Shown here: positions 21,924 to 42,022 of the stretch, piece after piece
Numbering within the stretch: position 1 is the stretch's first letter
Layout: each line of letters starts with the position of its first letter
IMG/VR virus record: IMGVR_UViG_3300008267_000780
Span: 1-64,000 of that record
DNA from: a virus
Direction: 5' to 3' (one strand)
Length of the DNA stretch: 64,000 nucleotides
Notes under the pieces: generated by a model
Database searches by the model: none
Told to the model about the DNA's origin: nothing
The model's input: only the letters and a program-made list of their open reading frames with translations
Translations under genes and position numbers: made by a program

Positions 21924-23035
21924 AACTATTAAAATTAACCAAACAGGAAGTTGCAAAACTTCAAAAGCAATACAAATTTGGGTCTGATTTATCCAAGCAA
22001 GACGTAGTAGTCAAAATATTTAACCCTTATGGTAGGGGAAGATGGTATTTGGTAAATCAAGACCCTAAGGACCCTGATTACATTTGGGCGATTGTAGATT
22101 TAGGGATGGGACCTGAAGTTGGCTCAGTGAGTTTGAGCGAACTGCAGAACCTGCGAATGCCTGTATATGGGTATAAATTCCCGTTGGAAAAAGACAGATT
22201 TACACAACGAAATGCTGTCGAAGTTTTTGAAGGATTGCAGCGCGGCAATTATTTTGCAGATGGTGGAGAAATCAAAGTAGAAGTTGCTCAAAAAGACATT
22301 TACAACAAAAATCATTACAAAGGTATATTCCAAGATTCCGACAAAGACGGTGTTCCTGACATTGATGATGCACAACCGAAAAATCCAAAATTACAGGGAG
22401 AGGTTGAAGAGTTGAAGTTCTCTCAAGTGTTTGATAGGCTAATAAAAACGAAAAGGTCTTTGGACAAAATTATGAGGGCGGCTATCTCAAAACTCAAGGT
22501 GATTTCCCCTGTAGGAAGTACGATTTATGCTCGAACCAAAACGCCTTATTCCATAATCAACAAATTGATTAATAAAAAGTCTACGAGCCTTGAAAGAAGC
22601 AAATTGGGTGATGTTGAAGGTTTGACGGATTTAATTGGAACCACAGTAGTTGTCAAAAATTTGAGTGGTATCGAACAGGTATCAAAAGAATTAGACAAAG
22701 GCGCATTGGGTGAAATATTGGAAAAAAAAGATTATTACGAAAACCCAAAAGCGGGTTATCGTGCAATTCACTACATCACCATTTTTGAGGGTGTTGCTAT
22801 TGAAGTGCAATTGAAAACTTATCGTCAAAAAGAAATCAATGAGGCCTCTCACCAAGCGTACAAATACGAAAATCTTGAAGCGGACCGTTTGTTGTATTTG
22901 ACCAATTTGGCGAATGAGGCTGATATGGGAGACCGAAAAGCCCAAATAGAAATTGACAAAATTTTCCTCGATAAAAAAGCCTTAAAGGAATCTTTGTACA
23001 AAGACAAAGTCAGAGGAAATAAATTACCTTCGTAA
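21920..23035 (+). CDS. DUF2958-like domain plus RelA/SpoT small alarmone synthetase
   Basis: KIFNPYGRGRWY...PEVGSVSLSEL; ARTKTPYSIINK, DLIG, DYYENPKAGYRAIH, EVQLKT. Confidence 0.85.
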   Translation: MKLLKLTKQEVAKLQKQYKFGSDLSKQDVVVKIFNPYGRGRWYLVNQDPKDPDYIWAIVDLGMGPEVGSVSLSELQNLRMPVYGYKFPLEKDRFTQRNAVEVFEGLQRGNYFADGGEIKVEVAQKDIYNKNHYKGIFQDSDKDGVPDIDDAQPKNPKLQGEVEELKFSQVFDRLIKTKRSLDKIMRAAISKLKVISPVGSTIYARTKTPYSIINKLINKKSTSLERSKLGDVEGLTDLIGTTVVVKNLSGIEQVSKELDKGALGEILEKKDYYENPKAGYRAIHYITIFEGVAIEVQLKTYRQKEINEASHQAYKYENLEADRLLYLTNLANEADMGDRKAQIEIDKIFLDKKALKESLYKDKVRGNKLPS

Positions 23036-24860: not shown

Positions 24861-24930
24861 ATAATATGACGGCATTGAACTGTAGAAAAAACTCACTATT
24901 TTTGTTTTAATCAATTAACTACATAATACT

Positions 24931-25050
24931 ATGGCAAATACTAAATCAGGATTCGTACCAATGGCTGTTGGGATTGCATTGTCTCTTGCAACAATTTATG
25001 TTATCGCATACTTTGCAGGCAAGGGATGGGAGAAAGCAACCGATAAGTAA
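24931..25050 (+). CDS. small membrane protein (39 aa, not in ORF track)
   Basis: MANTKSGFVPMAVGIALSLATIYVIAYFAGKGWEKATDK. Confidence 0.65.
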   Translation: MANTKSGFVPMAVGIALSLATIYVIAYFAGKGWEKATDK

Positions 25051-25052
25051 TT

Positions 25053-25547
25053 GTGAAAGGAATTTTCAAAGAAATATTGGATGCGACCCAAGGTCCGCAC
25101 GCAAATGGAGTTCTCTACGCAGGGGCTGTAGGACTTTTATTGTCCAATATTATTCCAACCCCCGCAGATGCTTTATATTTCCATCGTGAGAAAAAACTCA
25201 AGGAGAAATGGGACAATAAAGAAATCACACCCGAAAAATATTGGCAAAAAACTGCAACCGCCTATTACGTGTATAAACCCGTATGGTGGGGACTTGTAAT
25301 TAGTGCAATGTATTTTACCAAAGGCGATGTCAAGGACAAAGCGAAGATAGGTTTGATGATTGTAGGAGCAGGAGCCGTAGTAGGGATAGTTTACAGAAAT
25401 TACACAAAAGACATTCAAGATGTTCGTCGAGAAGTTTTGACTTCTATGGAGCCAAAGAAAAACATTACAGGTCCAAATAAGCCTGTGAAAGTTGGTCAAT
25501 ACAGGTCAGTTCTTCGAAAAGGAAACGTCTTAAAGTTTGTCGCTTAA
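25053..25547 (+). CDS. multi-pass membrane protein
   Basis: three hydrophobic segments; GTG start. Confidence 0.7.
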   Translation: MKGIFKEILDATQGPHANGVLYAGAVGLLLSNIIPTPADALYFHREKKLKEKWDNKEITPEKYWQKTATAYYVYKPVWWGLVISAMYFTKGDVKDKAKIGLMIVGAGAVVGIVYRNYTKDIQDVRREVLTSMEPKKNITGPNKPVKVGQYRSVLRKGNVLKFVA

Positions 25548-25557
25548 TAAAAAAGAA

Positions 25558-25911
25558 ATGGAAAATTTAACAGGAGCACCCGCAGCAGCCGCAGCACCCG
25601 CTGCCCCCGCAGCCCCCGCTGCACCCGCAGCACCTGCAGCACCCGTAATGGCGCAAGGTGGTAGTGTAGCAGATGCCGCACCGAAAATGGTAGAGGGTGG
25701 CGACGTTTCATCAATAGAAACCAATTGGGGAACTTGGATTGCAATTGGCTTGGTGTCACTTACGCTTGTTTCATTGATTTTACAGATTGCTGTACATCGC
25801 AAAAATTTAAAGAAAGTCGATGCAGACGATGAAGCATTGCAAAAAGATGTCAGGGAACTGAAAATGAATGTGAAAAAACAAATGGGCGAAAAGTATGAAA
25901 CCTTGGCTTGA
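25558..25911 (+). CDS. membrane protein with PAA repeat and MAQGG/MVEGG motifs
   Basis: MENLTG-(PAA)n-VMAQGG...KMVEGG, TM WIAIGLVSLTLVSLILQIAV. Confidence 0.7.
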   Translation: MENLTGAPAAAAAPAAPAAPAAPAAPAAPVMAQGGSVADAAPKMVEGGDVSSIETNWGTWIAIGLVSLTLVSLILQIAVHRKNLKKVDADDEALQKDVRELKMNVKKQMGEKYETLA

Positions 25912-26542
25912 CGAAGTCACGTATGGCAACCCAAATGATGAATTACTTCCCTATTTAGAAAAAGGGGAGTTTGATTTCGTATTCGAAGCACTCAAAAAAT
26001 TCCCACCGCCTAAAAATTCTTCGGAAACTACGCGGGATGAAATGAGAGAACTTATTTCGATTCAGAACTCTCCTGAGCAAAAAAACGAAGAAATTATGTC
26101 ACGGTATTTGAACTATGACAAAAATTTCGGAGATGTATTCAAAACTTATTGCAAAGACACAATAGGGGAAAATATGGATGACGTAATCGACCAAATTACA
26201 AAAGATGGTTTTTACGTCCTGACAAAATTAAAATTCTTTTACCAAAGGCCGCGTCCCTATCAGTTGGCACAATATTTAAGGGCGCGTCTTTTTCCTTATG
26301 CTGCAGCCACCGCTTTGACACCTGCATATCCTTCAGGACACTCGTTTGAGTCATATGCTTTGGCAGAATATATTGGAAGTAAGTATCCCGAACATTATCA
26401 GTTTTTGACTGATTTATCACACGATATATCAATTAGTCGATTATTTCTTGGATTGCATTTTGCCACTGATTTAGATTTTGGCAGATTTGCGGCTAAGAAA
26501 TATGTAGGCTCAAAGCAATTTGCAAGTAAATATGGAATATGA
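25895..26542 (+). CDS. PAP2/haloperoxidase-superfamily phosphatase
   Basis: KFFYQRPRP, YPSGH, SRLFLGLHFATD: all three PAP2 motifs. Confidence 0.9.
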   Translation: MKPWLDEVTYGNPNDELLPYLEKGEFDFVFEALKKFPPPKNSSETTRDEMRELISIQNSPEQKNEEIMSRYLNYDKNFGDVFKTYCKDTIGENMDDVIDQITKDGFYVLTKLKFFYQRPRPYQLAQYLRARLFPYAAATALTPAYPSGHSFESYALAEYIGSKYPEHYQFLTDLSHDISISRLFLGLHFATDLDFGRFAAKKYVGSKQFASKYGI

Positions 26543-26945
26543 ATTTCTCGTAACACCAATCGGCAAGCCGAGAATGACCCAACGGGACAAGTGGTTAAAT
26601 CCACCCCGTAAACCAATATTGAATTACAGAATTGCAAAACACGGTATTCAACATTATGCCTGTGAACAAAATTTTACTTTGCCCGAAATAATTAATGTTA
26701 TTTTTGTTTTACCTGTTTCAGAATCTTGGAGCAATAAGAAAAAAACATCAATGATTGGGCAGCCACATCGCCAAAAACCCGATTTGGATAATATCCTCAA
26801 ATTTTTGATGGATAGCCTTCTCCCAAACGGAGGTGATGAAGTTGTGCATACCATAAACGCCCGTAAAATTTGGGGTGAACACGGTAAAATATTAATTGAA
26901 ACAAAAAATGACTCGACAACGGAAAATCGAAACGAAGCCAATTGA
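26532..26945 (+). CDS. rusA: RusA-like Holliday junction resolvase
   Basis: KPRMTQRDKW, HRQKPDLDNILKFLMDSL..DE. Confidence 0.8.
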   Translation: MEYEFLVTPIGKPRMTQRDKWLNPPRKPILNYRIAKHGIQHYACEQNFTLPEIINVIFVLPVSESWSNKKKTSMIGQPHRQKPDLDNILKFLMDSLLPNGGDEVVHTINARKIWGEHGKILIETKNDSTTENRNEAN

Positions 26946-27342
26946 ACAATTATTCTCGGCATTGAGTGAGACGCTCAATGAAATTGGGTATATGCGAACC
27001 ATTCACCTACTGAGAAAAGGTCAAGAAAACGTATGGAATTCAGACTTGAAAGTTGCTACTGATGCAGTTTGCAAGGTATTTAATATTTCTCCCGATGTGG
27101 TATTTGGTAAATCAAGAAAATATCCCCGAAAATATGCTTTCGCTATTTGGGTTTATTTATCGTACACCAAATTAAATTACACGCTCCCCGATTTAGTGAA
27201 CTATACCCATAAGTCTTTGTCGACAATCAGCAAGGCTAAAGGCAGTATCGATAATCGAAAAAGCGTCACCGCATTTGAAAAGAAAATTAACGAAAAACTT
27301 GATGAATGCATACAAATCATAAATGAAATCAAACCCGAATAA
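26908..27342 (+). CDS. DnaA C-terminal-like HTH protein
   Basis: VCKVFNISPDVVFGKSRK...YTLPDLVNYTHKSLSTISKA. Confidence 0.6.
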   Translation: MTRQRKIETKPIEQLFSALSETLNEIGYMRTIHLLRKGQENVWNSDLKVATDAVCKVFNISPDVVFGKSRKYPRKYAFAIWVYLSYTKLNYTLPDLVNYTHKSLSTISKAKGSIDNRKSVTAFEKKINEKLDECIQIINEIKPE

Positions 27343-27344
27343 TT

Positions 27345-28319
27345 ATGGAAAATACAGAAAATGTGAATTCAGAAATCATTGATGATTTCTCCCCGCTTAC
27401 TCAGGACAATGTAATCCAACGTGATTATACAAAACCAAATGTTGACTTCTCTCAAGTCAATGCAACCCCTATTGAAGAACCTGTATTCGTAGCCCCCTCT
27501 TTTGAGGATATGGATGCTAATTGGAATTCCAAAAATGTCGAAGAAGCACAAATTGTAGATGAAAAAGCAAGTGCTAATCCATATACAGAAAATCTTGACA
27601 AGAAAGACCAAAGAAAAGCATCAGCCGCATTGGTTGAAGCCCTTTTGGATGGATACACTCAATTGAACAAATTTGGGAATAAACTCGTTCAATTCAATCC
27701 TGAAAAAATACAGGGAATGATGCGCTCAGGGGAAATAGACCCTGATTTGACCATTCCAATTAACGGTAGAAATATCGGAGTTCTTGATTATGTGAATGCA
27801 TACAATGAAGAAACTTCCTCAGTTATTTCCGTTGATGATGACTTCAAAGACAAGGTACGTCCATTGTTAATTGAAGAGTTTATGGAGCGCAACATCGGGA
27901 TGACCCGATTGCAATTGATTGGATATTATTTTGGAACTGATTTATTGACTAAGGGAACCTTGGTTTATTCATTGAGGAAACAGAATCAAGCAGTATTGGA
28001 TTCTTTGGTGGAAATTAGTCAAAATAACCGTCCCGCTCCAACACCTCAGGCAAGTCGTGTGCAACAGTCAGAACCAATTAGAGAAGAGGAACCTGTGAGA
28101 AAATCACAACGTGAATTCGTAGAGCCTGAAGAGGAATACGCAGTTGTCGAAGAGTTTGAACCCGTGACGGTAGTAAAAACTGCCAATGACGATGTTAGTC
28201 GCTCAAGAAGACCACAGGCAGGACCTAAGTTTGGTGACTCTGCAATTTTGGAGCAAATGGAACAAATCGCAAATGGTGAGCCTTCAGGTAAGCGTAGAGG
28301 TAGACCAAGGAAAAAATAA
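27345..28319 (+). CDS. acidic protein with C-terminal AT-hook, possible packaging accessory
   Basis: ends KRRGRPRKK; immediately upstream of the packaging ATPase. Confidence 0.55.
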   Translation: MENTENVNSEIIDDFSPLTQDNVIQRDYTKPNVDFSQVNATPIEEPVFVAPSFEDMDANWNSKNVEEAQIVDEKASANPYTENLDKKDQRKASAALVEALLDGYTQLNKFGNKLVQFNPEKIQGMMRSGEIDPDLTIPINGRNIGVLDYVNAYNEETSSVISVDDDFKDKVRPLLIEEFMERNIGMTRLQLIGYYFGTDLLTKGTLVYSLRKQNQAVLDSLVEISQNNRPAPTPQASRVQQSEPIREEEPVRKSQREFVEPEEEYAVVEEFEPVTVVKTANDDVSRSRRPQAGPKFGDSAILEQMEQIANGEPSGKRRGRPRKK

Positions 28320-28327
28320 TATCAAAT

Positions 28328-29149
28328 ATGAGAGAACCATTATTGGGCGTAGCCGTCGGAAAGAAAGGTGTAGGTAAAACCTTTACGACCAATAGGGTCA
28401 TAAAACAATATGTGATGGGTAATCCCGCTTCGGGAATTATGCCAAGAAAAGTTTTGATTTTAGATGCAAACGATGAATATACTGAGTACAAAGCGATTGC
28501 ATTAAAAGATTTGATGTTGTTTAGTGTGCACCCTATGGTAGAAGCAAGAAGAATTAGGCCAATTCACGCGGATGGTAAAAAAATGACCTTGGACGATTTG
28601 GCAACCACTTTGAATTACATTTTGGAAGTTTTTTCGGGTGGACTTTTATTGATTGAGGATATTAATCGTTTCACTTCTGATTTTATGCCTCAAGATTTGA
28701 TGGGAGCAATTGCAACAAATCGACATCGTGATTTGGATATCATTTTGCACTATCAAGGAATAGGTCGTATTGGAACAAAAGTGTGGCAAAACATAAATTG
28801 GCTCAGGATGCATAAAATTACTGAGTCAGCGATGCGACACGCGAAGAAGTTTGAAGACAAATATGAAATAATCCGCATATGCGAATTAATGGTCAATACA
28901 CAATTCTTTGCAGGTAACGAAAGGTACTATCAATATATTGATTGTGAGAATATGTGCTTTCAAGGTAAGGTAGATGAAAAGTTGTTTGCAGAAGCCTGTA
29001 AATTGTTTATTGAAGAGAATTATCGTAGAATTATTTCGCCTCTTTTACAAATTCGTGGAGTGGGTGACAAAAAGAAATTCACGGCTGATACTGCAATGAA
29101 GTCAGAAATGGAAAGATTAAGGAAAATGTACTTGAAAAAACAATTGTAA
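28328..29149 (+). CDS. genome packaging ATPase, A32/P9-like (FtsK-HerA superfamily)
   Basis: Walker A GKKGVGKT near the N-terminus, Walker B LLLIED, NRH...IILHYQ Arg-finger/Gln motif; 273 aa, no nuclease domain. Confidence 0.8.
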   Translation: MREPLLGVAVGKKGVGKTFTTNRVIKQYVMGNPASGIMPRKVLILDANDEYTEYKAIALKDLMLFSVHPMVEARRIRPIHADGKKMTLDDLATTLNYILEVFSGGLLLIEDINRFTSDFMPQDLMGAIATNRHRDLDIILHYQGIGRIGTKVWQNINWLRMHKITESAMRHAKKFEDKYEIIRICELMVNTQFFAGNERYYQYIDCENMCFQGKVDEKLFAEACKLFIEENYRRIISPLLQIRGVGDKKKFTADTAMKSEMERLRKMYLKKQL

Positions 29150-29182
29150 GTTACTTTAAGTCTACTATGTAATCAATAAGCG

Positions 29183-29209
29183 AACCCCCTTTAAAACAGG
29201 GGGTTTTTT
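29183..29209 (+). terminator. intrinsic terminator after the ATPase
   Basis: AACCCCCT-TTAAAAC-AGGGGGTT-TTTT. Confidence 0.8.
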
Positions 29210-29287
29210 ATTTTAAATACTTGTAAATTACTATGCAAAATATATTTTAGGGAATACTTAATAGTTAATAGTCCATTTTATCCAAGG

Positions 29288-29295
29288 TATTTTTG
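29288..29295 (+). promoter_or_regulatory. Bacteroidota -7 element upstream of the capsid unit
   Basis: TATTTTTG 40 nt before ATG 29336; no clear -33 element. Confidence 0.45.
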
Positions 29296-29335
29296 AAACT
29301 GTAAGCAGTCTGAACGGCTTATCAAACAAAAACTT

Positions 29336-29449
29336 ATGAACGTAGAATCTTTAAAAAAAATCGGAGGACAAGTCCTTTTAATTGTAGTCGGTGTATTAAT
29401 TGCTAATGAAGTTCAAAAGCAAATTGACAAACGACGCGCAGCAATGTAA
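29336..29449 (+). CDS. 37-aa membrane peptide co-transcribed with the MCP (not in ORF track)
   Basis: MNVESLKKIGGQVLLIVVGVLIANEVQKQIDKRRAAM. Confidence 0.7.
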   Translation: MNVESLKKIGGQVLLIVVGVLIANEVQKQIDKRRAAM

Positions 29450-29489
29450 ATTCACAAAAACCAAAAACCTTAAAAAAAAAACTTAGACT

Positions 29490-30188
29490 ATGAGTAATAT
29501 CCGTAAATACCTTGCTGACGCACAGAATCGTGCTCACGAGGGCTTCTTGAATGCCGATGGCTTCTTTGATGACGATTTGAACTTCACCGCAGGTGATGAT
29601 TTTATGTCTGCTAATGGCGACCCTATGCCTGCAGCGGCTCCAACCTCTCAGCCTTACATCATCCAAATTGCAAACACAGGTAGTGCTGTTTCCAATTTCA
29701 GTGTGTTGGGTTCATACGAACAGTTGAGTGATACGGCAGCGTTCACTTCAGGTTCGTACACTTCAGGAAACGTGACGATTTCGTCTGCTATTCCTAACGT
29801 GACTTACCAACAGATGCTTTACCAATTTATGAACAACCCGTTCAGCATTGGTTTGACTTACATTCAGTCAGCATCAAGCACTCAGTTGTTGGAAACAATC
29901 AGCGTACAAACACGTGACGCGAATGGTAACTTGGCACAAAAGCCATTGGTGCCAACCGTGGACCCATATCAGTTTCAGACTACAGTCCTTGCTCTCCGCT
30001 TCGGATACAGAATCGATGGTTACACCAAATTGATTTTGAACCAAGTGTTAGCATCGACCACTGTGAAATTGTACTTGTACCCTGCAGACAACATCAATTT
30101 GGCTCGTGGATTGTCAGGTCGCGCTGTATCAAAAGATTTCAGCAGCCCAGGCATTGTGCGTGCTCAAACCGTGAAAATTCAGGGTTAA
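29490..30188 (+). CDS. candidate major capsid protein (single jelly-roll-like)
   Basis: 232 aa, beta-strand-rich; C-ending codon bias (TTC/AAC/ATC/TAC); own terminator-bounded unit next to the packaging ATPase. Confidence 0.65.
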   Translation: MSNIRKYLADAQNRAHEGFLNADGFFDDDLNFTAGDDFMSANGDPMPAAAPTSQPYIIQIANTGSAVSNFSVLGSYEQLSDTAAFTSGSYTSGNVTISSAIPNVTYQQMLYQFMNNPFSIGLTYIQSASSTQLLETISVQTRDANGNLAQKPLVPTVDPYQFQTTVLALRFGYRIDGYTKLILNQVLASTTVKLYLYPADNINLARGLSGRAVSKDFSSPGIVRAQTVKIQG

Positions 30189-30210
30189 TCCCTCTTTTGC
30201 GATTGAATAG

Positions 30211-30248
30211 AAAAGGGGCGAAGGCAAACAGCCTCGCCCCTTTTTTTT
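30211..30248 (+). terminator. strong intrinsic terminator after the MCP
   Basis: GGGGCG-A-AGGC-AAACA-GCCT-CGCCCC-T8, preceded by an A tract. Confidence 0.9.
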
Positions 30249-30271
30249 AATACTCACAAACACAAATATTT

Positions 30272-30442
30272 ATGGCCTACAAAGTCAAATTGGGTAACAA
30301 GGATTACTTCACAGAAGAATTTTCTTCTGAGACGGAAGCAAAAAGAGCAAAGTATCACGCCATCATTGGCGCGAAAACTTTTCGTAGTGCATCAAAATCG
30401 ATGGACACGAAAATTGTAAAAGTTGTAAAAAAGAAAAAATAA
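30272..30442 (+). CDS. small basic protein (56 aa, not in ORF track)
   Basis: MAYKVKLGNK...KIVKVVKKKK; TAATG overlap with next gene. Confidence 0.6.
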   Translation: MAYKVKLGNKDYFTEEFSSETEAKRAKYHAIIGAKTFRSASKSMDTKIVKVVKKKK

Positions 30443-30825
30443 TGACAATCTACGAGTATATCGCGCGAAATAATCCCACAGGTGCTAAAAGGGTGATTGA
30501 ATCTTTTGGTTATGTGGTGACACAACCTAAAAAAATGGGCGATAACCTTCGTATGTTGGTAGCGCAGGAAGGAGAGCCCGCATTAAAAGCGGTGGTAGAC
30601 TTACACCCTGATAAAGACTTGATTTTGGAAGTTTTCGGAAACAGTCAGGGCGTTAAAGGAACAGGAGATAATTTCTTTGGAGCCGACGGCCTACTTCAAA
30701 GCGCAGTTTTGAATAACAACCAACAGCAAAATGATAGCAACAATAAAATGGTGCTTCAAACAAACACATTAATTGTGGCCTTATCACTCCTTGTAGTTGC
30801 AGGGTTAATATTAAAGAATCGATGA
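30442..30825 (+). CDS. virion membrane protein (C-terminal TM)
   Basis: FFGADG motif; TM LIVALSLLVVAGLIL. Confidence 0.7.
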   Translation: MTIYEYIARNNPTGAKRVIESFGYVVTQPKKMGDNLRMLVAQEGEPALKAVVDLHPDKDLILEVFGNSQGVKGTGDNFFGADGLLQSAVLNNNQQQNDSNNKMVLQTNTLIVALSLLVVAGLILKNR

Positions 30826-31364
30826 AAAATTTGAAACCTAACGAAATTTACGCTGTATCAGCGATGACCATCGACAACAATACTGAAGGGGTAAAAACTC
30901 TGATTACAAAGTATGGTGTCATTTTGCCAAAAAATGCAAGTCGCGCAGATGTTGACAAAGCATTTGCGGCACTTTTAAGAAAGAGCAAATCGTTTAGAAA
31001 TGATTTTGCTTTATTGGCTGCGAATGAAAGTCAAAAGAGCGATAACTTCTCCAATTTTATGGAATTTTTAGGTATGTCAGGCAGAGGTATTGGAACCACA
31101 AGTGCTCCTTTAAAAACTCCTGACCCAATTCCTGTGAAGACAAGTTTGCCGAACACAACTGCTAAAAAACCAAGTGCATTTGCTGAAGCGTTTGATGCTG
31201 ATACAATCAGAAATGTCATCAATACAGGATTGAATATTTGGGCTACCCGCTCAGGTACGACAGCCGCAACTACAAATGATTTACAATCAGGTAGGGATTC
31301 ATTGAATCTACAACCTCAAAATGAATCTACACGGGGTATCGGTACTACAGGAATCATCAGTTAA
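30822..31364 (+). CDS. putative virion protein, possibly C-terminally truncated
   Basis: 180 aa; ends GIGTTGIIS just where neighbours begin a TM. Confidence 0.65.
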   Translation: MKNLKPNEIYAVSAMTIDNNTEGVKTLITKYGVILPKNASRADVDKAFAALLRKSKSFRNDFALLAANESQKSDNFSNFMEFLGMSGRGIGTTSAPLKTPDPIPVKTSLPNTTAKKPSAFAEAFDADTIRNVINTGLNIWATRSGTTAATTNDLQSGRDSLNLQPQNESTRGIGTTGIIS

Positions 31365-31370
31365 AAAGTA

Positions 31371-31595
31371 ATGGCAAACGAATTTCAAGACGCTTTAGAC
31401 AATGTAAAAGAACTGAGTGGACAATCTACTCACGATACCTTTTTGAAGCAAAGCAAACGCATTATGAAGGGCAGTGCTACGGGTCTTGTAGTTGGTTTGA
31501 TGTACGGATGGTACACTAAGAAAAATATTTATGTCACTGCGATACTTGGTGTAATTGCAGGAGGTGCAGTTAACTACTTTATTTTTTCAGAATAA
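31371..31595 (+). CDS. two-TM glycine-zipper membrane protein
   Basis: GSATGLVVGLMYG and AILGVIAGGAV. Confidence 0.7.
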   Translation: MANEFQDALDNVKELSGQSTHDTFLKQSKRIMKGSATGLVVGLMYGWYTKKNIYVTAILGVIAGGAVNYFIFSE

Positions 31596-31596
31596 T

Positions 31597-32016
31597 ATGA
31601 CCTTGGATTCAGCAATAAAATATAAAGATTTTTCAAACCCAAGCATAGTGTTGGCAAGGCCCATCAATATCCAATCGGGTGCGGATGGTAGTCTATCGGT
31701 GAGCGGTCCTAAAGGAGCGGTACAATTAAAATTGACCAAACCGTTAACCATAACAAATGCTCAAGGGAAAAATGAAATCATAGAAAAAGGTGGTATTGTT
31801 TGGGGAATGCCATTGCAATCAATAGCCGCGAACAATTCTTATTTGTATGAAACACAAGGAAGGGTTTATGTTTTAACGGTTGGTGTCAATGCTGAATTAT
31901 ACAATCCATCGTCAAGCCCAAGAAAGGGTGAAGAATCGAAAAAAGGTTTTCCTGTTTCCGTAATAGGATTGGGTTTAATTGCAATCGTGATAATTTATAC
32001 AATAAACAAGTTATGA
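31597..32016 (+). CDS. virion membrane protein (C-terminal TM)
   Basis: beta-rich domain plus VSVIGLGLIAIVIIYTI. Confidence 0.7.
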   Translation: MTLDSAIKYKDFSNPSIVLARPINIQSGADGSLSVSGPKGAVQLKLTKPLTITNAQGKNEIIEKGGIVWGMPLQSIAANNSYLYETQGRVYVLTVGVNAELYNPSSSPRKGEESKKGFPVSVIGLGLIAIVIIYTINKL

Positions 32017-32114
32017 AAATTGCTGATGATAAAAAGAAAAAAGGTGGTGCATTGATGCTTGTAGGCTTTGCCTTACTCGCTTATGTTGTTTATAAAATAA
32101 TCGAAAGTAAATGA
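32013..32114 (+). CDS. 33-aa membrane peptide (not in ORF track)
   Basis: MKIADDKKKKGGALMLVGFALLAYVVYKIIESK; ATGA overlaps at both ends. Confidence 0.65.
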   Translation: MKIADDKKKKGGALMLVGFALLAYVVYKIIESK

Positions 32115-32335
32115 AAAAAGAATATATTGAAGCCCTTGTTTTGATTGGAGCCATCGGTTTTGCTATTTATTTGGCAAGTCCCAAAGACTCCGTATTGAAG
32201 AGTGCAAAAGCGAATTCGCCAAATCCCACAGGACCTAAAGGGGGATTTGAGAATTTCACTGCAGACGAATTAACTTATGACGACCATTTGTATGGAAATG
32301 CAGATGGAGGATTAAAAGGTTTAACACTTAAATAA
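32111..32335 (+). CDS. membrane protein (N-terminal TM)
   Basis: TM plus YGNADGG motif. Confidence 0.7.
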   Translation: MKKEYIEALVLIGAIGFAIYLASPKDSVLKSAKANSPNPTGPKGGFENFTADELTYDDHLYGNADGGLKGLTLK

Positions 32336-32343
32336 ATAAAACT

Positions 32344-32433
32344 ATGACAAAAAACACTAAAACAATCTTGACTGTAGCCGTAGTTGCTACCGTTTTGTTC
32401 TTCGTTTTCAAGAAGCCTAAAACTGACGCTTAA
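32344..32433 (+). CDS. 29-aa membrane peptide (not in ORF track)
   Basis: MTKNTKTILTVAVVATVLFFVFKKPKTDA. Confidence 0.6.
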   Translation: MTKNTKTILTVAVVATVLFFVFKKPKTDA

Positions 32434-32444
32434 TTTTCATCAAA

Positions 32445-32927
32445 ATGAATCGTGATGTATTATTGGGCGCGGGGGTCGTTTTGGCCTTTATCGTCCTTGT
32501 AAGCAGAGCCAAGAAAAACCAAGTTTCCGAACCTTCAGGTGGCGGTGGTGGAGGTGGTATGGGCGGTCCTTTCGTTGCAGGAATACCTGCAGGACCTTTG
32601 ACCGTGAATACTATTGTTCAACCCGCACGTCCCGCGAACCAAGGTCAAGTAATTACAACCTTGGGCACAAAAGACACTACTCCAACTGCAGCGGTTACAA
32701 GTTCTACTCAAGCCAAAGCAATTGATACTGCGACTAACACGGGTGGAATTATTCCTATAGGTCAAGGTGGAAGTTCTACTCCCACTTACAGCACAGGAAC
32801 TGTTACTCAAGCGGATTTAAAGTCAGGTGTTGCAGGTAACACGGTTTTCAAGCCTTTCAGCGGAGCATCAATTGATGCAAAATTCTTGGGATTTGTAGGT
32901 TCAAGGCCTAAATTTGAATTCAATTAA
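32445..32927 (+). CDS. membrane protein with Gly/Thr-rich tail
   Basis: N-terminal TM and poly-Gly. Confidence 0.7.
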   Translation: MNRDVLLGAGVVLAFIVLVSRAKKNQVSEPSGGGGGGGMGGPFVAGIPAGPLTVNTIVQPARPANQGQVITTLGTKDTTPTAAVTSSTQAKAIDTATNTGGIIPIGQGGSSTPTYSTGTVTQADLKSGVAGNTVFKPFSGASIDAKFLGFVGSRPKFEFN

Positions 32928-32928
32928 T

Positions 32929-33210
32929 ATGTTGTCAGCAAATAAACTATACAAAGATTCAGGAACCACTTTGTCGTTCAAAGAATGGTTGGAGCGTGAA
33001 AAGGCAAAAGGCAAATTTATTCCTAACGTGCAAGCGATGGAAGAATTTGTAAATGCCGATGGTGGTGTTTCAGAGCAAGCCTCTGAAAAATCTCAAATCA
33101 CAGCCAAATCAGTCGAGAACAAACAACTGTTTACTTCCGTGGCTCGAGTCGGTTTAATTGTTGTATTGGCATATTTCGTTTATCGAACTATCAAAAGTGA
33201 AGTTAAATAA
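32929..33210 (+). CDS. virion membrane protein (C-terminal TM)
   Basis: FVNADGG motif; TM VGLIVVLAYFVY. Confidence 0.7.
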   Translation: MLSANKLYKDSGTTLSFKEWLEREKAKGKFIPNVQAMEEFVNADGGVSEQASEKSQITAKSVENKQLFTSVARVGLIVVLAYFVYRTIKSEVK

Positions 33211-33421
33211 CACTCAAATAAAGCGCATACTGATTGCAGGGGGATTTTTCTTCCTGCTTTTGCGTTTTCGGGGATATTTAAATCCCGCGAAAGAAACTTT
33301 GTCTGCTAAAGACGAATCTTTATCAGCGAGTGGTACGAAAACCGTTATTGATAGGGCGATTGACAAAATTAGAAGTGGCGGGGTAAAAGTTGCAAGCACT
33401 CCATCTGAAATAACAAACTGA
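33197..33421 (+). CDS. membrane protein (N-terminal TM)
   Basis: GTG start assumed; ILIAGGFFFLLL. Confidence 0.55.
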   Translation: MKLNNTQIKRILIAGGFFFLLLRFRGYLNPAKETLSAKDESLSASGTKTVIDRAIDKIRSGGVKVASTPSEITN

Positions 33422-34203
33422 TGAAAGAAGAAAGAATTGCTACCAAATATGCTCCCGTTACGCTTTGTGTGGTTTTGAAAACAGAGTTCCCTACCAAACT
33501 CAATTTGGTAGTGTTCGATGCAAAAAACCCCAAAAGGAAATTCACTGAGCGTTACAAAACTGTTACAGGCGAAGAAACCCTGTATGTTCGAATGCCGTTG
33601 TCTCCTGATAACGCTGTCGTTCAAGTTTTTTCGCACGGTGGAATTGCAAAAAAGAATGACCCAAACTTCAGTATTGTAAGGGTTTACAAAAAAGGTTTGG
33701 AGCGTCGGTTTGATTTGAATGATATTGGGAATCCCCAAATACGCTCATTCGTCAAATTCGCGCAGAAATTTTGTTTTAATGTGAGTGAGTTGGAGCCCGA
33801 AGAAACTTATCGAAGTGATGACGGTGAATACTTTATTCAGTTGAAGCAACAGATAAAAGATGCAAACGGAAAAGTGTTGGGTACGCCCGCACGTATTGGC
33901 CGTAGAACAGGTGTTATTCAAGTGAGTAAAACCCAATTTGAGGCCTTTACAATTCCTATGCGTATGGCAATTTTGCTACACGAATTTTCCCATTTTTACT
34001 TGAATGAAAAAATGGATGATGAAATGGAGGCAGACTTAAATGGATTGTTGATTTACCTTGGTCTTGGATATCCAAGAATTGAGGCTTATCAAGCGTTCCT
34101 CGAAACATTCAAAAATGCACCAAGCAATTTGAATAAGAAACGCTACGATATGATTAATAACTTCATCAACAATTTTGAGAAAATGGACATTGTAATAAAA
34201 TAA
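33421..34203 (+). CDS. zincin metalloprotease, candidate maturation protease
   Basis: ILLHEFSH (HExxH) plus EMEAD third-ligand motif. Confidence 0.8.
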   Translation: MKEERIATKYAPVTLCVVLKTEFPTKLNLVVFDAKNPKRKFTERYKTVTGEETLYVRMPLSPDNAVVQVFSHGGIAKKNDPNFSIVRVYKKGLERRFDLNDIGNPQIRSFVKFAQKFCFNVSELEPEETYRSDDGEYFIQLKQQIKDANGKVLGTPARIGRRTGVIQVSKTQFEAFTIPMRMAILLHEFSHFYLNEKMDDEMEADLNGLLIYLGLGYPRIEAYQAFLETFKNAPSNLNKKRYDMINNFINNFEKMDIVIK

Positions 34204-34205
34204 AG

Positions 34206-34625
34206 ATGGCAGTTACAAATTGGAACACAGCACCTGATTACGATGAATGGGGCCCCGATAAGTCTTGGGGTTGTGAAGATTGGATACAATGGCACAAATT
34301 GCTCAAATTAAAATTTGGCGCAGTTAAAGCCAACTATATTTGGAATTATGCATATGCCCAAGGAACACAGGGAGCGTCCCATTGGAGTTGCAGGACAACA
34401 AATACTATGTTCCGAAATTATGTGGCAAAGGAAGGTTTGAATCCATATGAAAGTGCGGGTGCATTTGCGCCTATTTTGAATGTTATTGGTGGCGCGGGCG
34501 ATGTAGTCAGTGGCACGGGTGATTTACTGTCAGATATTGGTAAGAATTTAAAAATCATCGGGTACATCGCAATTTTGGGTGTAGCCGTGTATGTGGGAAT
34601 AACCGTTTATAAGAAGACAAAGTGA
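34206..34625 (+). CDS. Trp-rich virion membrane protein (C-terminal TM)
   Basis: TM IIGYIAILGVAVYVGITVY followed by KKTK. Confidence 0.7.
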   Translation: MAVTNWNTAPDYDEWGPDKSWGCEDWIQWHKLLKLKFGAVKANYIWNYAYAQGTQGASHWSCRTTNTMFRNYVAKEGLNPYESAGAFAPILNVIGGAGDVVSGTGDLLSDIGKNLKIIGYIAILGVAVYVGITVYKKTK

Positions 34626-34783
34626 TGAAAAAGGAAATATTGTATGCGGGTGGTATTTTGGTTGCTTTGGGAGCGATTTATTTCATTGTGAAGCAATATA
34701 AAAAGAATCAAGATGGGTCAGCCGCGTTGGATGACAAGGAAATCGTTGATTTATTGAAAAAAATTGATTCGGCAAAAAAATGA
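34625..34783 (+). CDS. 52-aa membrane protein (not in ORF track)
   Basis: MKKEILYAGGILVALGAIYFIVKQYKK... Confidence 0.65.
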   Translation: MKKEILYAGGILVALGAIYFIVKQYKKNQDGSAALDDKEIVDLLKKIDSAKK

Positions 34784-35310
34784 GTACGGAAAAAGGATTA
34801 AAATATGGGTTTTTCTTTATCGCAGGGGTTGCAGTAATTCTTGGTGTTGTTCTATTGGGTAAAAAGAAGCCCGATGACGATGACGAAAATCCAAATCCTG
34901 AGCCTACACCAATGGACCCTGTAATTGACCCTGTTCAAGCATCAGTTCCGCAAAATCTTGCAACTATTCTTGCAAGCAAGGACCCTATTGTAGCATTGAA
35001 GGGTAGGAAGATTTATGCAAAAGTTGCCAATGCAAAAGGTAGGAAAACCCCATATGTAAATGACGGTATGGTAAACAACCTTGCATTCGAATCACTGAAC
35101 GGTGAGTATCTTGGGTATCCTACAAGAGTCGGTAACGATTTAAATGGTGCTAAAGATGCATCAGGAAAAGTTTACAAGTGGATTAGAGTTACACTCGACA
35201 CGAAATCGTGGAATAGGTATAACGATACCAAATCATTTTTGACCAAACAAACTTTTATGAATAACGGAAATAACTTTGCGTGGTTCAGGGAGGACGTAAT
35301 TAAATTATAA
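34780..35310 (+). CDS. membrane-anchored SH3b-like protein
   Basis: TM, Pro linker, then AKGRKTP...YKWIRV...AWFREDVI. Confidence 0.5.
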   Translation: MSTEKGLKYGFFFIAGVAVILGVVLLGKKKPDDDDENPNPEPTPMDPVIDPVQASVPQNLATILASKDPIVALKGRKIYAKVANAKGRKTPYVNDGMVNNLAFESLNGEYLGYPTRVGNDLNGAKDASGKVYKWIRVTLDTKSWNRYNDTKSFLTKQTFMNNGNNFAWFREDVIKL

Positions 35311-35858
35311 TGAAAAAGCAAGCAATTGATAAAAATTTGAAATACGGGCTGTACGTTTTGTCGGCCCTTATTGGTGGTTTTGCAGTCGTAAAAATTGTAA
35401 AAGCAATTAAGGATAATGCAGATAAAGGCGATGATGAAAACAAACCTGAGCCTGAGATTAAAACAGTTTATGTAGACACATACCTGTCAAAGTTGCCTTT
35501 AGGGGTGGATAATTTGACTTGGGGCTCTAAAGTACCCGCTAAGTATTTGCCAACTTTTAATGCAAGCACAGCCGCGAGTACAGATGCAACATACAAAGCG
35601 AATGCAATACGCGTTCAAACTTTGTTAAATCAAAGACTTGCCGCTTTGGGAGGTGGATATCCTAAATTGGTAACAGATGGTATCATAGGTGGTGAAACAA
35701 CAAAAGCAATGATTGTAGTTGCAAAGCAGTATGACAAAATGAATTTGTTGCCTTTAACCAAAAAAGAAGACATTAATAATTGGCTGACCTTTTTCAATGT
35801 AAAAACAATATCAGGAGATTCCTCACAAACAGGTGAGTTTCCTTTTTTCAAAAAATAA
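35310..35858 (+). CDS. membrane-anchored protein with peptidoglycan-binding motif
   Basis: VQTLLN...LVTDGIIGGETTKAM (PG_binding_1 pattern). Confidence 0.65.
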   Translation: MKKQAIDKNLKYGLYVLSALIGGFAVVKIVKAIKDNADKGDDENKPEPEIKTVYVDTYLSKLPLGVDNLTWGSKVPAKYLPTFNASTAASTDATYKANAIRVQTLLNQRLAALGGGYPKLVTDGIIGGETTKAMIVVAKQYDKMNLLPLTKKEDINNWLTFFNVKTISGDSSQTGEFPFFKK

Positions 35859-35870
35859 GACGACAAGAAT

Positions 35871-36431
35871 ATGGACATAGATTCTTTTTTCACAGATGGC
35901 GACCTAAGTTTCGGAATGGACGGTTCAAGCCCTAATTTCAAAAACCTTACAGGAACAGGTCAAAATGTTTCTCGCGGTCCCAAATATGGCGAGTATGAAT
36001 TCAATAAGAACCCTGAATATGGGTTTACTGATGATATTTATTCAAACGCTACGGGTACTTCAAGATTAAATCAACCTACGGAATGGTACGTTACCAAGTT
36101 GTCTGATGCAGACAAAAAAGACTGTAACAAATTACAGGGTGTAATGGATAATATCTCCAAGGATATTGATACCAACAATAAAAAAATGGCCACTGCAAAA
36201 CGCGGTGAAAGAAGGGTTCTTGAAGAATATAACAAGGGTTTGGAATTGGCAGGTAAAAAAGTCTTGGAATTGATGAATGCGGCTAATTGCACCGTCATTC
36301 AGCAGGCAGAATTTAATAAAGCGTTGGGTGTAGCGGGTTCCCCATCAAAATCATCAAAGGTGATTTTGTATGTTGGCATTGGCGTTGCTGCATTGGCTCT
36401 TGGAGTGGTACTTTACAAAAAATTTAAGTAA
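35871..36431 (+). CDS. virion membrane protein (C-terminal TM)
   Basis: FKNLTG and YSNATG motifs, helical domain, TM plus YKKFK. Confidence 0.7.
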   Translation: MDIDSFFTDGDLSFGMDGSSPNFKNLTGTGQNVSRGPKYGEYEFNKNPEYGFTDDIYSNATGTSRLNQPTEWYVTKLSDADKKDCNKLQGVMDNISKDIDTNNKKMATAKRGERRVLEEYNKGLELAGKKVLELMNAANCTVIQQAEFNKALGVAGSPSKSSKVILYVGIGVAALALGVVLYKKFK

Positions 36432-37171
36432 TGAGAACAAACATCAGTAAACAGTTAGGATTGCCCGTTGCTCCCCCAAGAGCAAAAGCCCCATCTATAG
36501 AAAAACAGTTGGGTTTTGTGGCCGAATATGATAAGTCTTTGGATTCAAGCAACTTGAATTTCTTTGCGGAAAATGACAAGTATTTTAATGCTTCAGGAGA
36601 AACAAAGAACTTTAATGAGTACTATAAAGGGAGTGAAGCCTCAGTGCGCTCTGTATTAGAGGGCTTAAAAATAAACACGTCTGAAGACTTGGACTATCTT
36701 GAATCTGAGAAAAAAAGATTTCAGGAAGGCAAGGCAACTTTAGAACGCGATATTAACGCCATCAAAATAAATCAAGCGCAAAAAGCATTTGGTACTCAAG
36801 CCTACACTCAGCGTGGAAAATATGTTTCTCAATTATGGTCCGTAGATAAAACAATCGAGGGAATTGACAAAAGAATTGCTGATGTCAAGGTTATTTTGGA
36901 GAAAAAAGCCGCAAAAGCGAAGGCTGATGCAGAAGCCGCTGCAGCGAAAATGAAAGCAGAGGCTGAAGCCGCAAAGCAGGCAAAAATTGCCGCGTTGAAA
37001 AAGCAGATTGCTGATTCAAAAGACCCAAGTGTAAAAAAACAACTTACTGACGAACTCACAGGACTTTTGCAAGAAGGAACTGAAGGGCTTAAATCAAACA
37101 AAATTGTTTTGATTGGTGGAGCCGTGGTTGTAATCGGTGTTTTGTATTACTTTTTTAGGAGCAAGCAATAA
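36431..37171 (+). CDS. coiled-coil virion membrane protein (C-terminal TM)
   Basis: YFNASG motif; Ala/Lys-rich coil; TM. Confidence 0.7.
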   Translation: MRTNISKQLGLPVAPPRAKAPSIEKQLGFVAEYDKSLDSSNLNFFAENDKYFNASGETKNFNEYYKGSEASVRSVLEGLKINTSEDLDYLESEKKRFQEGKATLERDINAIKINQAQKAFGTQAYTQRGKYVSQLWSVDKTIEGIDKRIADVKVILEKKAAKAKADAEAAAAKMKAEAEAAKQAKIAALKKQIADSKDPSVKKQLTDELTGLLQEGTEGLKSNKIVLIGGAVVVIGVLYYFFRSKQ

Positions 37172-38011: not shown

Positions 38012-38389
38012 ATGAATATTAAAAAGGATTTTTTTAAAGGAGTTAGTCTTTACGCCACTGAATCTTCGGTTCAAGAATCAGAAGTTCAAGTGCGATTGAC
38101 TATTGGTCAGAGTGAATCTGAGCCTATCAATTATCAATGGTGCATTAATTGGCAGCCCAATCGTAATACGAATTATAACGAGGTTATGGGTCGCAAAATT
38201 ATCAATATCACTGAGGCTTTAGTGGCACCTATGTTGCATCAAGCAATGGTCAAGTGGGCAAGAACTCTTGACATTTCATTAGAAAATTTTAGTGGTTTCT
38301 TGTTCAAGAAAGACGATGTTATTGGTGTTGCTATCTACGATAAGACAACCCCAAAAAAATTATGTCCAATTGAAGAATTACTTGGATGA
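38012..38389 (+). CDS. hypothetical protein
   Basis: ORF coupled to the fibre gene. Confidence 0.65.
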   Translation: MNIKKDFFKGVSLYATESSVQESEVQVRLTIGQSESEPINYQWCINWQPNRNTNYNEVMGRKIINITEALVAPMLHQAMVKWARTLDISLENFSGFLFKKDDVIGVAIYDKTTPKKLCPIEELLG

Positions 38390-42004: not shown

Positions 42005-42022
42005 ATTATTAAAATTAAATAT

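Follow-up and report, generated by a model that had tools for sequence, protein, structure and literature searches.

Why does a single virus carry the same six-residue peptide on proteins that otherwise appear unrelated? This question arises from a 64,000-nucleotide stretch (hereafter the window) of IMGVR_UViG_3300008267_000780, an uncultured 75-kb virus that is probably tailless, membrane-lined and bacterial. The sequence-only reading proposed that a motif [FY]-x-[NSG]-A-[DNTS]-G is shared by the leader of the putative major coat protein and by several membrane proteins, with an HExxH protease gene embedded among them. It interpreted the motif as a virion-wide code for maturation cleavage or assembly, possibly read by a metalloprotease rather than by cysteine proteases like those of eukaryotic jelly-roll viruses. 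The motif and the protease were therefore examined in the window and in related loci.

Enrichment and conservation of the motif

The motif was confirmed as described: all nine peptides to which positions had been assigned, including the seven core copies, were recovered by translation. In a six-frame scan of the window the pattern occurs eight times, always on the + strand in real genes, and seven of these hits lie within 29.5-36.6 kb. Shuffling the 2581 residues of the proteins encoded at 29.4-37.5 kb yielded on average 0.08 hits and at most 3 in 5000 shuffles, compared to the seven observed. As the pattern had been fitted to this sequence, it was applied unchanged to the + strand ORFs of 51 distant loci whose zincin is at most 55% identical. 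This gave 141 hits against 9.4 expected. Over all open segments, 143 hits against 11.7 expected were found on the + strand, but only 1 against 2.1 on the - strand. The pattern is thus 15-fold enriched in relatives that had not been used to define it, and only on the coding strand, which refutes an origin by chance or composition. Of four proposed variants, two hold. FLGMSG (31065) is located at the alignment column where orthologues harbor YSNAVG or FSNANG, and FKNLTG (35937) is kept as FKNFAG or MNFVGAG in relatives, whereas MENLTG (25558) and FLGFVG are not conserved as a motif.

A consensus [ED]-x-[FY]-hydrophobic-[NG]-A-[DSNT]-G was derived from 210 unique instances in eight families that do not cluster together by BLAST, although two of them, designated families 19 and 42, share an N-terminal anchor and may be related. 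The instances show E/D at position -2 in 71%, F/Y in 97%, N/G in 95%, A in 77% and G in 94%. The motif is present in the leader of the coat candidate in 66 of 68 loci, that is, in the window and in each of the 65 related loci with a coat-family ORF in range. It is also present in all 66 members of the family of the protein at 30442, at a single alignment column. Other membrane-protein families gained it independently, clade by clade. Even the outgroup locus L076, whose zincin is 28% identical, retains EKYFNITG in its coat candidate.

Tagged proteins and the predicted zincin protease

All features described here are encoded on the + strand. A putative packaging ATPase of the FtsK/HerA type (A32/P9-like) is located at 28328..29149, directly upstream of the coat candidate. 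Its assignment rests on weak matches to Pfam DUF87/HerA (E 0.0013) and AAA_22 and to a PHROG terminase-like ATPase (E 3e-4). The gene was found in 65 ORFs of the related loci. The coat candidate (29490..30188, 232 aa) has an N-terminal helix (residues 3-17), an acidic disordered leader and a predicted jelly-roll body (residues 56-216). The AF2 model has an overall pLDDT of 87.9, with values below 50 in the leader at residues 19-27 and 30-41, and structural alignment (VIA-align) to viral capsid jelly rolls reached Z 5-6.4. The designation as major coat protein is plausible but rests only on this fold at modest Z and on gene position. The protein has 1277 homologues (598 representatives at 50% clustering), and its leader keeps two motif copies down to about 30% identity. 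The first, FLNADG (29544..29561), contains an NADG that is nearly invariant among 120 homologues. In the second, FMSANG (29601..29618), the alanine (A41) is at least 90% conserved in an alignment of 78 sequences.

The remaining core copies are found in membrane proteins. The tail-anchored protein at 30442..30825 consists of a helical N-domain, the motif FFGADG (30673-30690), a spacer and a C-terminal TM helix. The adjacent member of a membrane-protein family (30822..31364) harbors the degenerate copy FLGMSG (31065-31082), where orthologues carry YSNAVG, FSNANG or YANADG, and has lost the C-terminal TM helix that these possess. A 74-aa protein (32111..32335) comprises an N-terminal TM helix, a linker, the motif YGNADG (32291-32308) and eight further residues. 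In the 98-aa tail-anchored protein at 32914..33210 the motif FVNADG (33046-33063) is a clade-specific gain. The core pattern [FYW]x[NSGD]AxG matches 13 of 67 family members at this column and a looser pattern allowing A/F/V/M/I/L/C/T at position 4 matches 22, whereas the other members read EMLNLLG, RINLGID and similar. The 186-aa tail-anchored protein at 35871..36431 contains YSNATG (36039-36056), the variant FKNLTG (35937-35954) and an N-terminus (MDIDSFFTDGDLSF) that resembles the spacer of the coat leader. The 246-aa tail-anchored, coiled-coil-like protein at 36431..37171 carries YFNASG (36581-36598), with YFDATG, FLSADG or FLNAGG in orthologues. The motif is thus positioned in a disordered leader ahead of the jelly roll, between a globular N-domain and the membrane anchor, or just after an anchor and a basic stretch. 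The linker-like setting claimed by the sequence-only reading is shown for the coat candidate, whereas for the other proteins it is inferred from gappy alignment regions of variable length.

A sister motif, hydrophobic-hydrophobic-A-[DNE]-G-G, recurs in the giant multidomain proteins upstream, with five hits in the window against 0.14 expected. A 1255-aa multidomain (polyvalent-type) protein (18156..21923) has three copies, YMADGG at 19476, YMADGG at 20340 and WYADGG at 21330, and relatives carry 1-5 copies per giant protein. A DUF2958 + RelA/SpoT-like protein (21920..23035), assigned by Pfam hits, contains YFADGG (22250-22267) just after the DUF2958 domain. This copy is conserved as FFANGG or FYADGG in relatives, where the module is part of ORFs of about 1010-1180 aa. 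A 124-aa membrane protein (25537..25911) harbors VMAQGG (25645-25662), the MAxGG motif of the sequence-only reading, which orthologues keep as MAHGG, MAQGG or MAEGG.

The HExxH gene was confirmed at 33421..34203. It encodes a 260-aa soluble protein without a TM helix, in which an N-terminal beta-sandwich (residues 1-92) precedes a gluzincin domain with an M48-like predicted fold, HEFSH (187-191) and EMEAD (201-205). Residues H187, E188, H191, E201 and D205 are invariant in 51 sequences, and 1710 homologues were found. The AF2 model (pLDDT 91) aligned best with BepA/M48 (Z 8.4, rmsd 4.3 over 121 residues), and also with 3c37, Ste24, ZMPSTE24 and abylysin. No sequence match was found in Pfam or PDB, but the nearest named Atlas clusters carry Peptidase_M48 or U49. 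The gene lies in the same module in all 67 related loci. However, those loci were found through the zincin, and all related loci were retrieved through the zincin or the coat protein, so this co-occurrence comes without a comparison to genomes lacking one of them.

Cutting or docking

The interpretation of the sequence-only reading is partly supported. The data indicate a real, lineage-wide virion code that is strongly enriched and positionally conserved across a very large virus group and that may be read by the zincin, the coat protein or both. In the explanation tentatively preferred here, the motif and its GG-ending sister are short linear recognition signals that mark proteins destined for the particle: the coat candidate, a set of single-pass membrane proteins and, through the sister motif, the giant multidomain proteins. 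The most likely reader would be the gluzincin, which is proposed to bind these exposed segments and cut at or next to them during assembly. This would remove the coat leader, trim or release the ectodomains of membrane proteins and divide the giant proteins, in the way that T4 gp21, phiKZ gp175 and the adenovirus protease act on many virion proteins through one short consensus. The analysis itself establishes the motif, its enrichment, conservation and independent gains, and the fold and invariant catalytic residues of the zincin. In contrast, recognition of the motif by the zincin, cutting at the motif and the identity of the 232-aa protein as the major coat protein are inferences.

A complex prediction of the zincin with coat residues 1-60 lends weak support. 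The score was 0.51, compared to 0.01 for the best of three controls. That mark was reached by 58 of 80 solved complexes and by 2 of 110 mismatched pairs, but at 0.60 or under only 7 of those 80 reached it, as did both mismatches that passed. In this range passes are more often wrong than right unless the guess was likely beforehand. The runs agree in at least 31% of contacts, the pLDDT of the partner is at least 44, and no interface was given. Several architectures also fit docking better than cutting. Some carriers are too small for cutting to make sense, such as a 41-aa member of family 19 (L030_8273) made only of a TM helix, a basic stretch, the motif and four residues, or the 74-aa protein at 32111, where the motif lies eight residues from the end. 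One relative carries a tandem array of motif-like 17-aa repeats, which looks like multivalent binding. The motif-like N-terminus of the 35871 protein starts at residue 6, and Asn/Gly at position 3 and Gly at position 6 suggest a compact turn presented for binding. Furthermore, known capsid-maturation proteases are serine, cysteine or herpesvirus/HK97-type enzymes, and M48-like zincins are not known among them.

A docking code without cutting is only somewhat less likely and remains a possible alternative. In this view the motif is a plug for a pocket on a shell component, most simply the underside of the coat jelly roll or the beta-sandwich of the zincin used as an adaptor. Coat-protein arms and membrane proteins would attach to the same site and tether the inner membrane and its proteins to the shell, and the zincin would have another job. 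Besides the minimal proteins, the repeats and the turn-forming residues, this is supported by the acidic flanks of the motif and by family 19, which has up to six paralogues per locus, each with a TM helix, KPKxxNSEGFFGASG and a variable C-terminal part. In tail-anchored proteins and in family 19, where a basic stretch follows the TM helix, the motif would lie on the presumed cytoplasmic, shell-facing side, as inferred from the positive-inside rule. Repeated independent gains are also typical of short binding motifs. However, no partner was identified, and in the monomer model the coat leader does not dock on its own jelly roll (pLDDT below 50). Two copies on every coat subunit would need an equally abundant receptor, and the invariant active site of a core protease in the module would be left without a substrate.

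It is unlikely that the motif is read from outside the particle module, for example by a host chaperone, membrane-insertion factor or protease, or that it is a purely structural element, such as a Ca2+ or lipid head-group contact or a helix-capping turn that recurs for folding reasons. In the coat leader, the aromatic residue of copy 1 appears to continue the hydrophobic stripe of helix 3-17 (Y7, A11, A15, F19), and Gly followed by Phe would fit a helix C-cap, while acidic flanks could bind divalent cations. However, a folding element would not be expected in disordered, length-variable linkers of eight families that do not cluster together, nor would it be gained repeatedly only in this module. 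Position 7 is hydrophobic in a minority of instances, and the pattern is absent from the replication and glycosylation genes of the same genome. An N-glycosylation-type sequon (N-x-S/T) is very unlikely: although many distant relatives read NASG, NATG, NFSG or NVTG and the genome encodes several glycosyltransferases and FkbM methyltransferases, only 52 of 142 instances with Asn at position 3 have Ser or Thr at position 5, where Asp is commonest, Gly replaces Asn in 27% of instances with the same spread of residues at position 5 and hence no N...S/T covariation, and the invariant aromatic residue, Ala and Gly are not needed by a sequon.

Comparison with known systems

In phage T4, the prohead protease gp21 acts at L/I-x-E sites and internal proteins carry a capsid-targeting sequence, while phiKZ gp175 acts at S/A/G-x-E sites. 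There, too, one short degenerate consensus is shared by the N-terminal leader of the coat protein and many otherwise unrelated particle proteins, including very large internal ones, and a protease gene lies in the morphogenesis module. However, these are tailed phages with HK97-fold coat proteins and serine-type (herpesvirus/HK97-class) proteases, and their cutting has been shown experimentally. In the present virus the coat candidate is a small jelly roll, most carriers are membrane proteins and the enzyme is an M48-like zincin, for which cutting is inferred only. The adenovirus protease, with the consensus (M/I/L)-X-G-G|X and (M/I/L)-X-G-X|G, ASFV pS273R (G-G|X) and poxvirus I7 (A-G|X) belong to jelly-roll-lineage viruses in which Gly-containing sites are spread over many core, membrane and cement proteins. 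The sister motif resembles (M/I/L)XGG in form. However, these are cysteine enzymes of eukaryotic viruses, no adenain or Ulp1-like gene was detected here by Pfam or PHROGs, and the main motif needs an aromatic residue and Asn/Gly-Ala, which those sites do not.

Zincin-like metallopeptidase domains of phage and plasmid polyvalent proteins share an HExxH helix followed by a Glu-bearing helix, and were predicted to process large multidomain proteins that travel with the DNA (Iyer et al. 2017, PMC5512222). The present virus has such giant proteins and they carry the sister motif, but its zincin is a separate 260-aa protein with its own beta-sandwich domain in the membrane and coat gene block. The best structural matches of zincin residues 108-255 are M48 peptidases and minigluzincins, namely BepA/YfgC (6sar) as given above and Ste24/ZMPSTE24 and proabylysin (4jiu) with Z 6.2-6.6, which share HExxH plus a downstream Glu. 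However, there is no sequence-level match to Pfam PF01435 or to any PDB chain, the protein is soluble, and its N-terminal beta-sandwich is not found in those enzymes. Membrane-containing tailless phages and archaeal viruses with jelly-roll coats and an A32/P9-type ATPase (PRD1, PM2, P23-77/Sphaerolipoviridae, STIV) are not known to have a shared motif or protease. The gene block of an ATPase, a jelly-roll coat candidate and many small single-pass membrane proteins is common to both, no tailed-phage genes are detectable, and one complete relative has inverted terminal repeats. In contrast, the genome is 72-102 kb instead of 10-30 kb, and there is a single small jelly-roll coat candidate with an acidic leader.

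Gene context and occurrence of the motif

The motif was first considered in the context of its genes. Almost all genes from 2.6 to 61.5 kb of the 64-kb window, which is part of a 74.7-kb IMG/VR viral contig, lie on the + strand. Scans with Pfam and PHROGs found no terminase, portal, HK97-type coat or tail genes, and the large ORFs yielded no other coat, portal or terminase candidate. Instead, an FtsK/HerA-type ATPase with only weak HerA/DUF87 and terminase-ATPase matches is encoded at 28328-29149, directly followed by a 232-aa coat-protein candidate at 29490-30188 and about 17 single-pass membrane proteins between 30.4 and 38 kb. The same order was seen in related loci. A tblastn search of GenBank phages with the ATPase gave no match, nor did a sequence search of the PDB. 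An SLT lytic transglycosylase, a PAP2 phosphatase and a RusA resolvase (24135-26945, +) lie between the giant-protein genes and the assembly block. The overall G+C content is about 37%, whereas a single ORF of 4183 codons with collagen-like repeats (45923-58474, +) has about 55%. The opposite strand and the other frames are also open over most of this ORF, as expected for Gly-x-y repeats, and it may encode a giant fibre or surface protein. A collagen-repeat protein (38386-39267, +; Pfam Collagen, E 3e-17) is followed by three large glycosyltransferase/FkbM-methyltransferase fusion proteins (40034-45930, +), which suggests glycosylated collagen-like fibres, as on giant viruses. One complete relative of 72,545 bases (the contig of related locus L027) is classed by IMG/VR as 100% complete with inverted terminal repeats, which would fit a linear genome with protein-primed replication, as in PRD1 or adenovirus.

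The sequence-only reading had described a shared [FY]x[NSG]A[DNTS]G motif in the coat candidate and membrane proteins, with an HExxH protein in their midst, and this observation holds, as every listed peptide was found where it had been placed. The pattern occurs eight times in the six-frame translation of the window, always on the + strand in real genes, and seven of these lie between 29.5 and 36.6 kb. Shuffled versions of the 2581 residues encoded in 29.4-37.5 kb gave a mean of 0.08 hits and never more than three in 5000 trials. As the pattern had been fitted to this window, it was also applied unchanged to 67 related loci that were retrieved through the zincin. In the 51 loci whose zincin is at most 55% identical, it occurs 141 times in + strand ORFs against 9.4 expected. 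Over all open segments, the coding strand gave 143 hits against 11.7 expected and the opposite strand one against 2.1. The motif is therefore real, specific to the proteins and old. Of four looser variants that had also been proposed, FLGMSG and FKNLTG sit where relatives have clear copies, whereas MENLTG and FLGFVG are not conserved.

Alignment of each carrier family yielded 210 unique instances at the conserved columns, from eight families that do not cluster together by BLAST, although families 19 and 42 share an N-terminal anchor and may be related. Position -2 is Glu/Asp in 71% of the instances, position 1 is Phe/Tyr in 97%, position 2 is mostly hydrophobic, position 3 is Asn in 68% or Gly in 27%, position 4 is Ala in 77% and otherwise Phe, Met or Val, position 5 is Asp in 38%, Ser in 20%, Asn in 13% and Thr in 10%, and position 6 is Gly in 94%. 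The coat candidate carries one or two copies in its leader in the window and in the 65 related loci with a coat-family ORF in range, and this holds across a 78-sequence alignment reaching about 30% identity. The 30442 family shows the motif at one alignment column in 66 of 66 members. Other families carry it only in some clades. In the 32914 family, 13 of 67 members match the core pattern and 22 match a looser pattern allowing other hydrophobic residues at position 4, whereas the rest read EMLNLLG or RINLGID. The families of 30822, 35871 and 32111 and two families absent from this window (19 and 35) likewise carry it in some clades only. No concerted change of motif variants across families within a clade was evident. 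Even the outgroup locus L076, whose zincin is 28% identical, has EKYFNITG ahead of the presumed jelly roll of its coat candidate and FKNFDGG in a membrane protein.

Further details were noted in individual carriers. The window copy of the 30822 family (30822-31364, +) stops just before the C-terminal TM helix that all ten compared orthologues have, and the next gene starts 7 bases later, and either the anchor has been deleted in this genome or the assembly is wrong. In L009/L018, the orthologue of this protein (L009 11171-12154) has a tandem array of about six 17-residue repeats (NLMFDGSVGxDGAFKNS) where other orthologues have one motif copy. Homology between the N-domains of the 30442 and 30822 proteins was not supported (BLASTP E 0.11; hhalign probability 4%). 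The N-terminus of the 35871 protein, MDIDSFFTDGDLSFGMDG (35871-35930, +), is conserved in its orthologues and resembles the spacer of the coat leader, ADGFFDDDLNFTAGDDF, and is a second shared element besides the six-residue motif. Family 19, found in the related loci L029, L030, L034, L038 and L048, consists of small proteins with an N-terminal TM helix, KPKxxNSEGFFGASG and variable, sometimes Cys-rich tails, and is amplified to 2-6 tandem paralogues per locus.

The coat candidate and the predicted gluzincin

The model of the coat candidate (29490-30188) is confident, with an overall pLDDT of 87.9 and values above 90 over residues 50-210. It shows a helix at residues 3-17, a disordered acidic stretch at residues 19-41 (pLDDT below 50) that holds both motif copies, and a beta-sandwich from residue 56 to 216. 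The top VIA-align rows are rich in viral capsid jelly rolls, namely nepovirus (Z 6.4), PR772 penton (5.7), FLiP (5.2), phiCjT23 (5.2) and PBCV-1 (5.1), but all Z values are below 8 and C1q/TNF-like and carbohydrate-binding folds score similarly. Foldseek returned nothing at E<=0.001 against the PDB, and BFVD gave only low-TM generic jelly-roll, C1q or collagen-head matches. Thus the designation as coat protein is a well-placed inference, not a demonstrated fact. The family is very large, with 1277 clusters at 90% identity and 598 at 50%. It also occurs as two tandem full-length copies in L044 (5667-7093), as short leaderless paralogues of about 150 aa located about 12.5 kb downstream of the coat gene in L020, L021, L031, L046, L050 and L069, and as proteins of 320-411 aa with two matching stretches in the family representatives P0248, P0301, P0306 and P0316. 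These forms are relevant to how single jelly rolls become double ones. Among 150 listed representatives, some have basic leaders or none. Of the motif-less representatives, P0280 has no relative in the viral contig collection, and P0253 matches ordinary members only over its presumed jelly roll, so that its odd ends look like an assembly or frame artefact.

The HExxH protein at 33421-34203 was modelled with a pLDDT of 91 and comprises an N-terminal beta-sandwich (residues 1-92) and a helical domain. H187, E188 and H191 of the HExxH motif (HEFSH) are invariant in 51 sequences down to 50% identity and lie on helix 178-194. E201 and D205 (EMEAD) are likewise invariant and lie at the start of helix 201-214, which places a Glu as the inferred third zinc ligand on the following helix. 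The best solved match of the helical domain (residues 108-255) is the M48 peptidase BepA (6sar; Z 8.4, rmsd 4.3, 121 aligned residues), followed by another M48-type peptidase, 3c37 (Z 6.6), Ste24 (6.3), ZMPSTE24 (6.2) and abylysin (6.2). However, these Z values are moderate, and Foldseek returned nothing at E<=0.001 against the PDB. No Pfam family was matched at E<=0.1, a sequence search of the PDB gave no match, and only the language-model neighbours, small viral proteins partly annotated as Peptidase_M48 or U49, carry PF01435 on 12-25% of their members. This indicates an M48-like gluzincin by fold that is not a member of the Pfam family. The gene lies in the same block in all 67 related loci, although these loci were found through it.

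A sister motif in giant multidomain proteins

The sequence-only reading had remarked that the A-x-G core overlaps an MAxGG motif. A search based on this remark identified hydrophobic-hydrophobic-A-[DNEQ]-G-G five times in the window against 0.14 expected: three times in the 1255-aa protein at 18156-21923, once after the DUF2958 domain of the RelA/SpoT-like protein at 21920-23035 (+) and once in the membrane protein at 25537. In five relatives, the giant multidomain proteins (852-2575 aa) that match these carry one to five copies each, often as GG-x-M-A-D-G-G. The site after DUF2958 is conserved. This DUF2958 + RelA/SpoT-like nucleotide pyrophosphokinase is a separate gene here, whereas in two relatives (L078 and L079) its DUF2958 module is part of ORFs of about 1010-1180 aa; it may be a particle-delivered effector. 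Two window copies, YGNADGG and FVNADGG, satisfy both patterns, and the two motifs were therefore treated as one family. One site, residue 1059 of the 1255-aa protein, coincides with the start of a module that is shuffled between relatives. However, over all sites the association with module junctions is only a trend, as BLAST segment ends lie near the sites 26 times of 250 against 16.8 +/- 5.6 for random sites (P about 0.07).

Proposed cutting or docking, and comparison with known systems

Two readings of the motif survive, and they are not exclusive. The proposal of the sequence-only reading, a virion-wide maturation-cleavage or assembly code possibly read by a metalloprotease, is partly supported. 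The motif, its enrichment and conservation, and the invariant residues of the HExxH protein were established by the analysis, whereas the peptidase activity of this protein, its binding to the motif, cleavage at the consensus and formation of the shell by the coat candidate are inferred.

Cutting by the zincin is considered the most likely reading, although only tentatively. An active-looking protease is a fixed part of the module, and the motif lies in exposed linkers between a leader or a globular domain and the rest of the protein. The sister motif punctuates giant proteins of the polyvalent type, which were predicted to be processed by zincin-like peptidases (Iyer et al. 2017, PMC5512222). 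There are strong precedents in T4, phiKZ and adenovirus, where one protease cuts the coat leader and many particle proteins at one short consensus. A complex prediction of the zincin with coat residues 1-60 scored 0.51 against 0.01 for the best of three controls. The mark was reached by 58 of 80 solved complexes and 2 of 110 mismatched pairs, but at 0.60 or under by only 7 of those 80 and by both mismatches that passed. Contact agreement was at least 31%, the pLDDT of the partner at least 44, and no interface was reported. This prediction gives weak support only.

Docking without cutting is also possible and only somewhat less favoured. Some carriers are hardly more than an anchor and the motif, such as a 41-aa family-19 member that ends four residues after the motif and the 74-aa protein at 32111. 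The amplification of family 19 to six paralogues in one locus and the tandem array of motif-like repeats in one relative point in the same direction, and the residues at positions 3 and 6 favour a tight turn. In tail-anchored proteins and in family 19, the motif lies on the presumed cytoplasmic side, which by inference would face the shell in a PRD1-like assembly.

Other readers of the motif or a structural role are unlikely. An N-linked glycosylation sequon is very improbable, as only 52 of 142 instances with Asn have Ser or Thr at position 5, and Gly replaces Asn in 27% of instances with no change at position 5. A sortase/exosortase-type sorting signal was rejected on spacing and topology, since the spacer between motif and TM helix varies from about 20 to more than 160 residues and the motif also occurs after N-terminal TM helices and in the soluble coat candidate. 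Chance is practically excluded.

It is possible, although less likely than not, that a large, undescribed lineage of tailless, membrane-lined bacterial viruses matures its particle with a stand-alone M48-like zinc protease, which would read a six-residue code on the removable leader of the coat protein, on membrane proteins and on giant internal proteins. This would be the first metalloprotease-driven, propeptide-type capsid maturation in the jelly-roll (PRD1-like) world of prokaryotic viruses, and the same code may double as the plug that ties the inner membrane to the shell. How membrane-containing tailless viruses recruit the right membrane proteins into the particle and couple the lipid vesicle to the protein shell is largely unknown even for PRD1 and PM2. 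A lineage-wide tag on the coat leader and the membrane proteins offers a concrete, mutable handle on this question, and the invariant putative protease beside it provides a testable enzyme-substrate hypothesis. The tag also predicts which of the many unannotated small proteins of these abundant lake-water viruses are particle components, with about 1300-1700 protein clusters (90% identity) each for the coat candidate and the zincin, and the sister motif may predict where the giant multidomain proteins are divided. If cutting were confirmed, capsid maturation by a shared consensus would have arisen with yet another protease class in another virus realm.

No description of this virus group or of the motif was found in a full-text literature search. 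In its logic, the system is closest to the maturation and targeting codes of T4, phiKZ and adenovirus, with which it shares the use of one short consensus on the coat leader and many unrelated particle proteins and, as inferred from sequence and fold, a protease gene conserved within the morphogenesis module. It differs from them in virus type, with a probable jelly-roll coat candidate and a presumed inner membrane, in its carriers, which are mostly membrane proteins, in the motif itself and in the class of the putative protease, an M48-like zincin.
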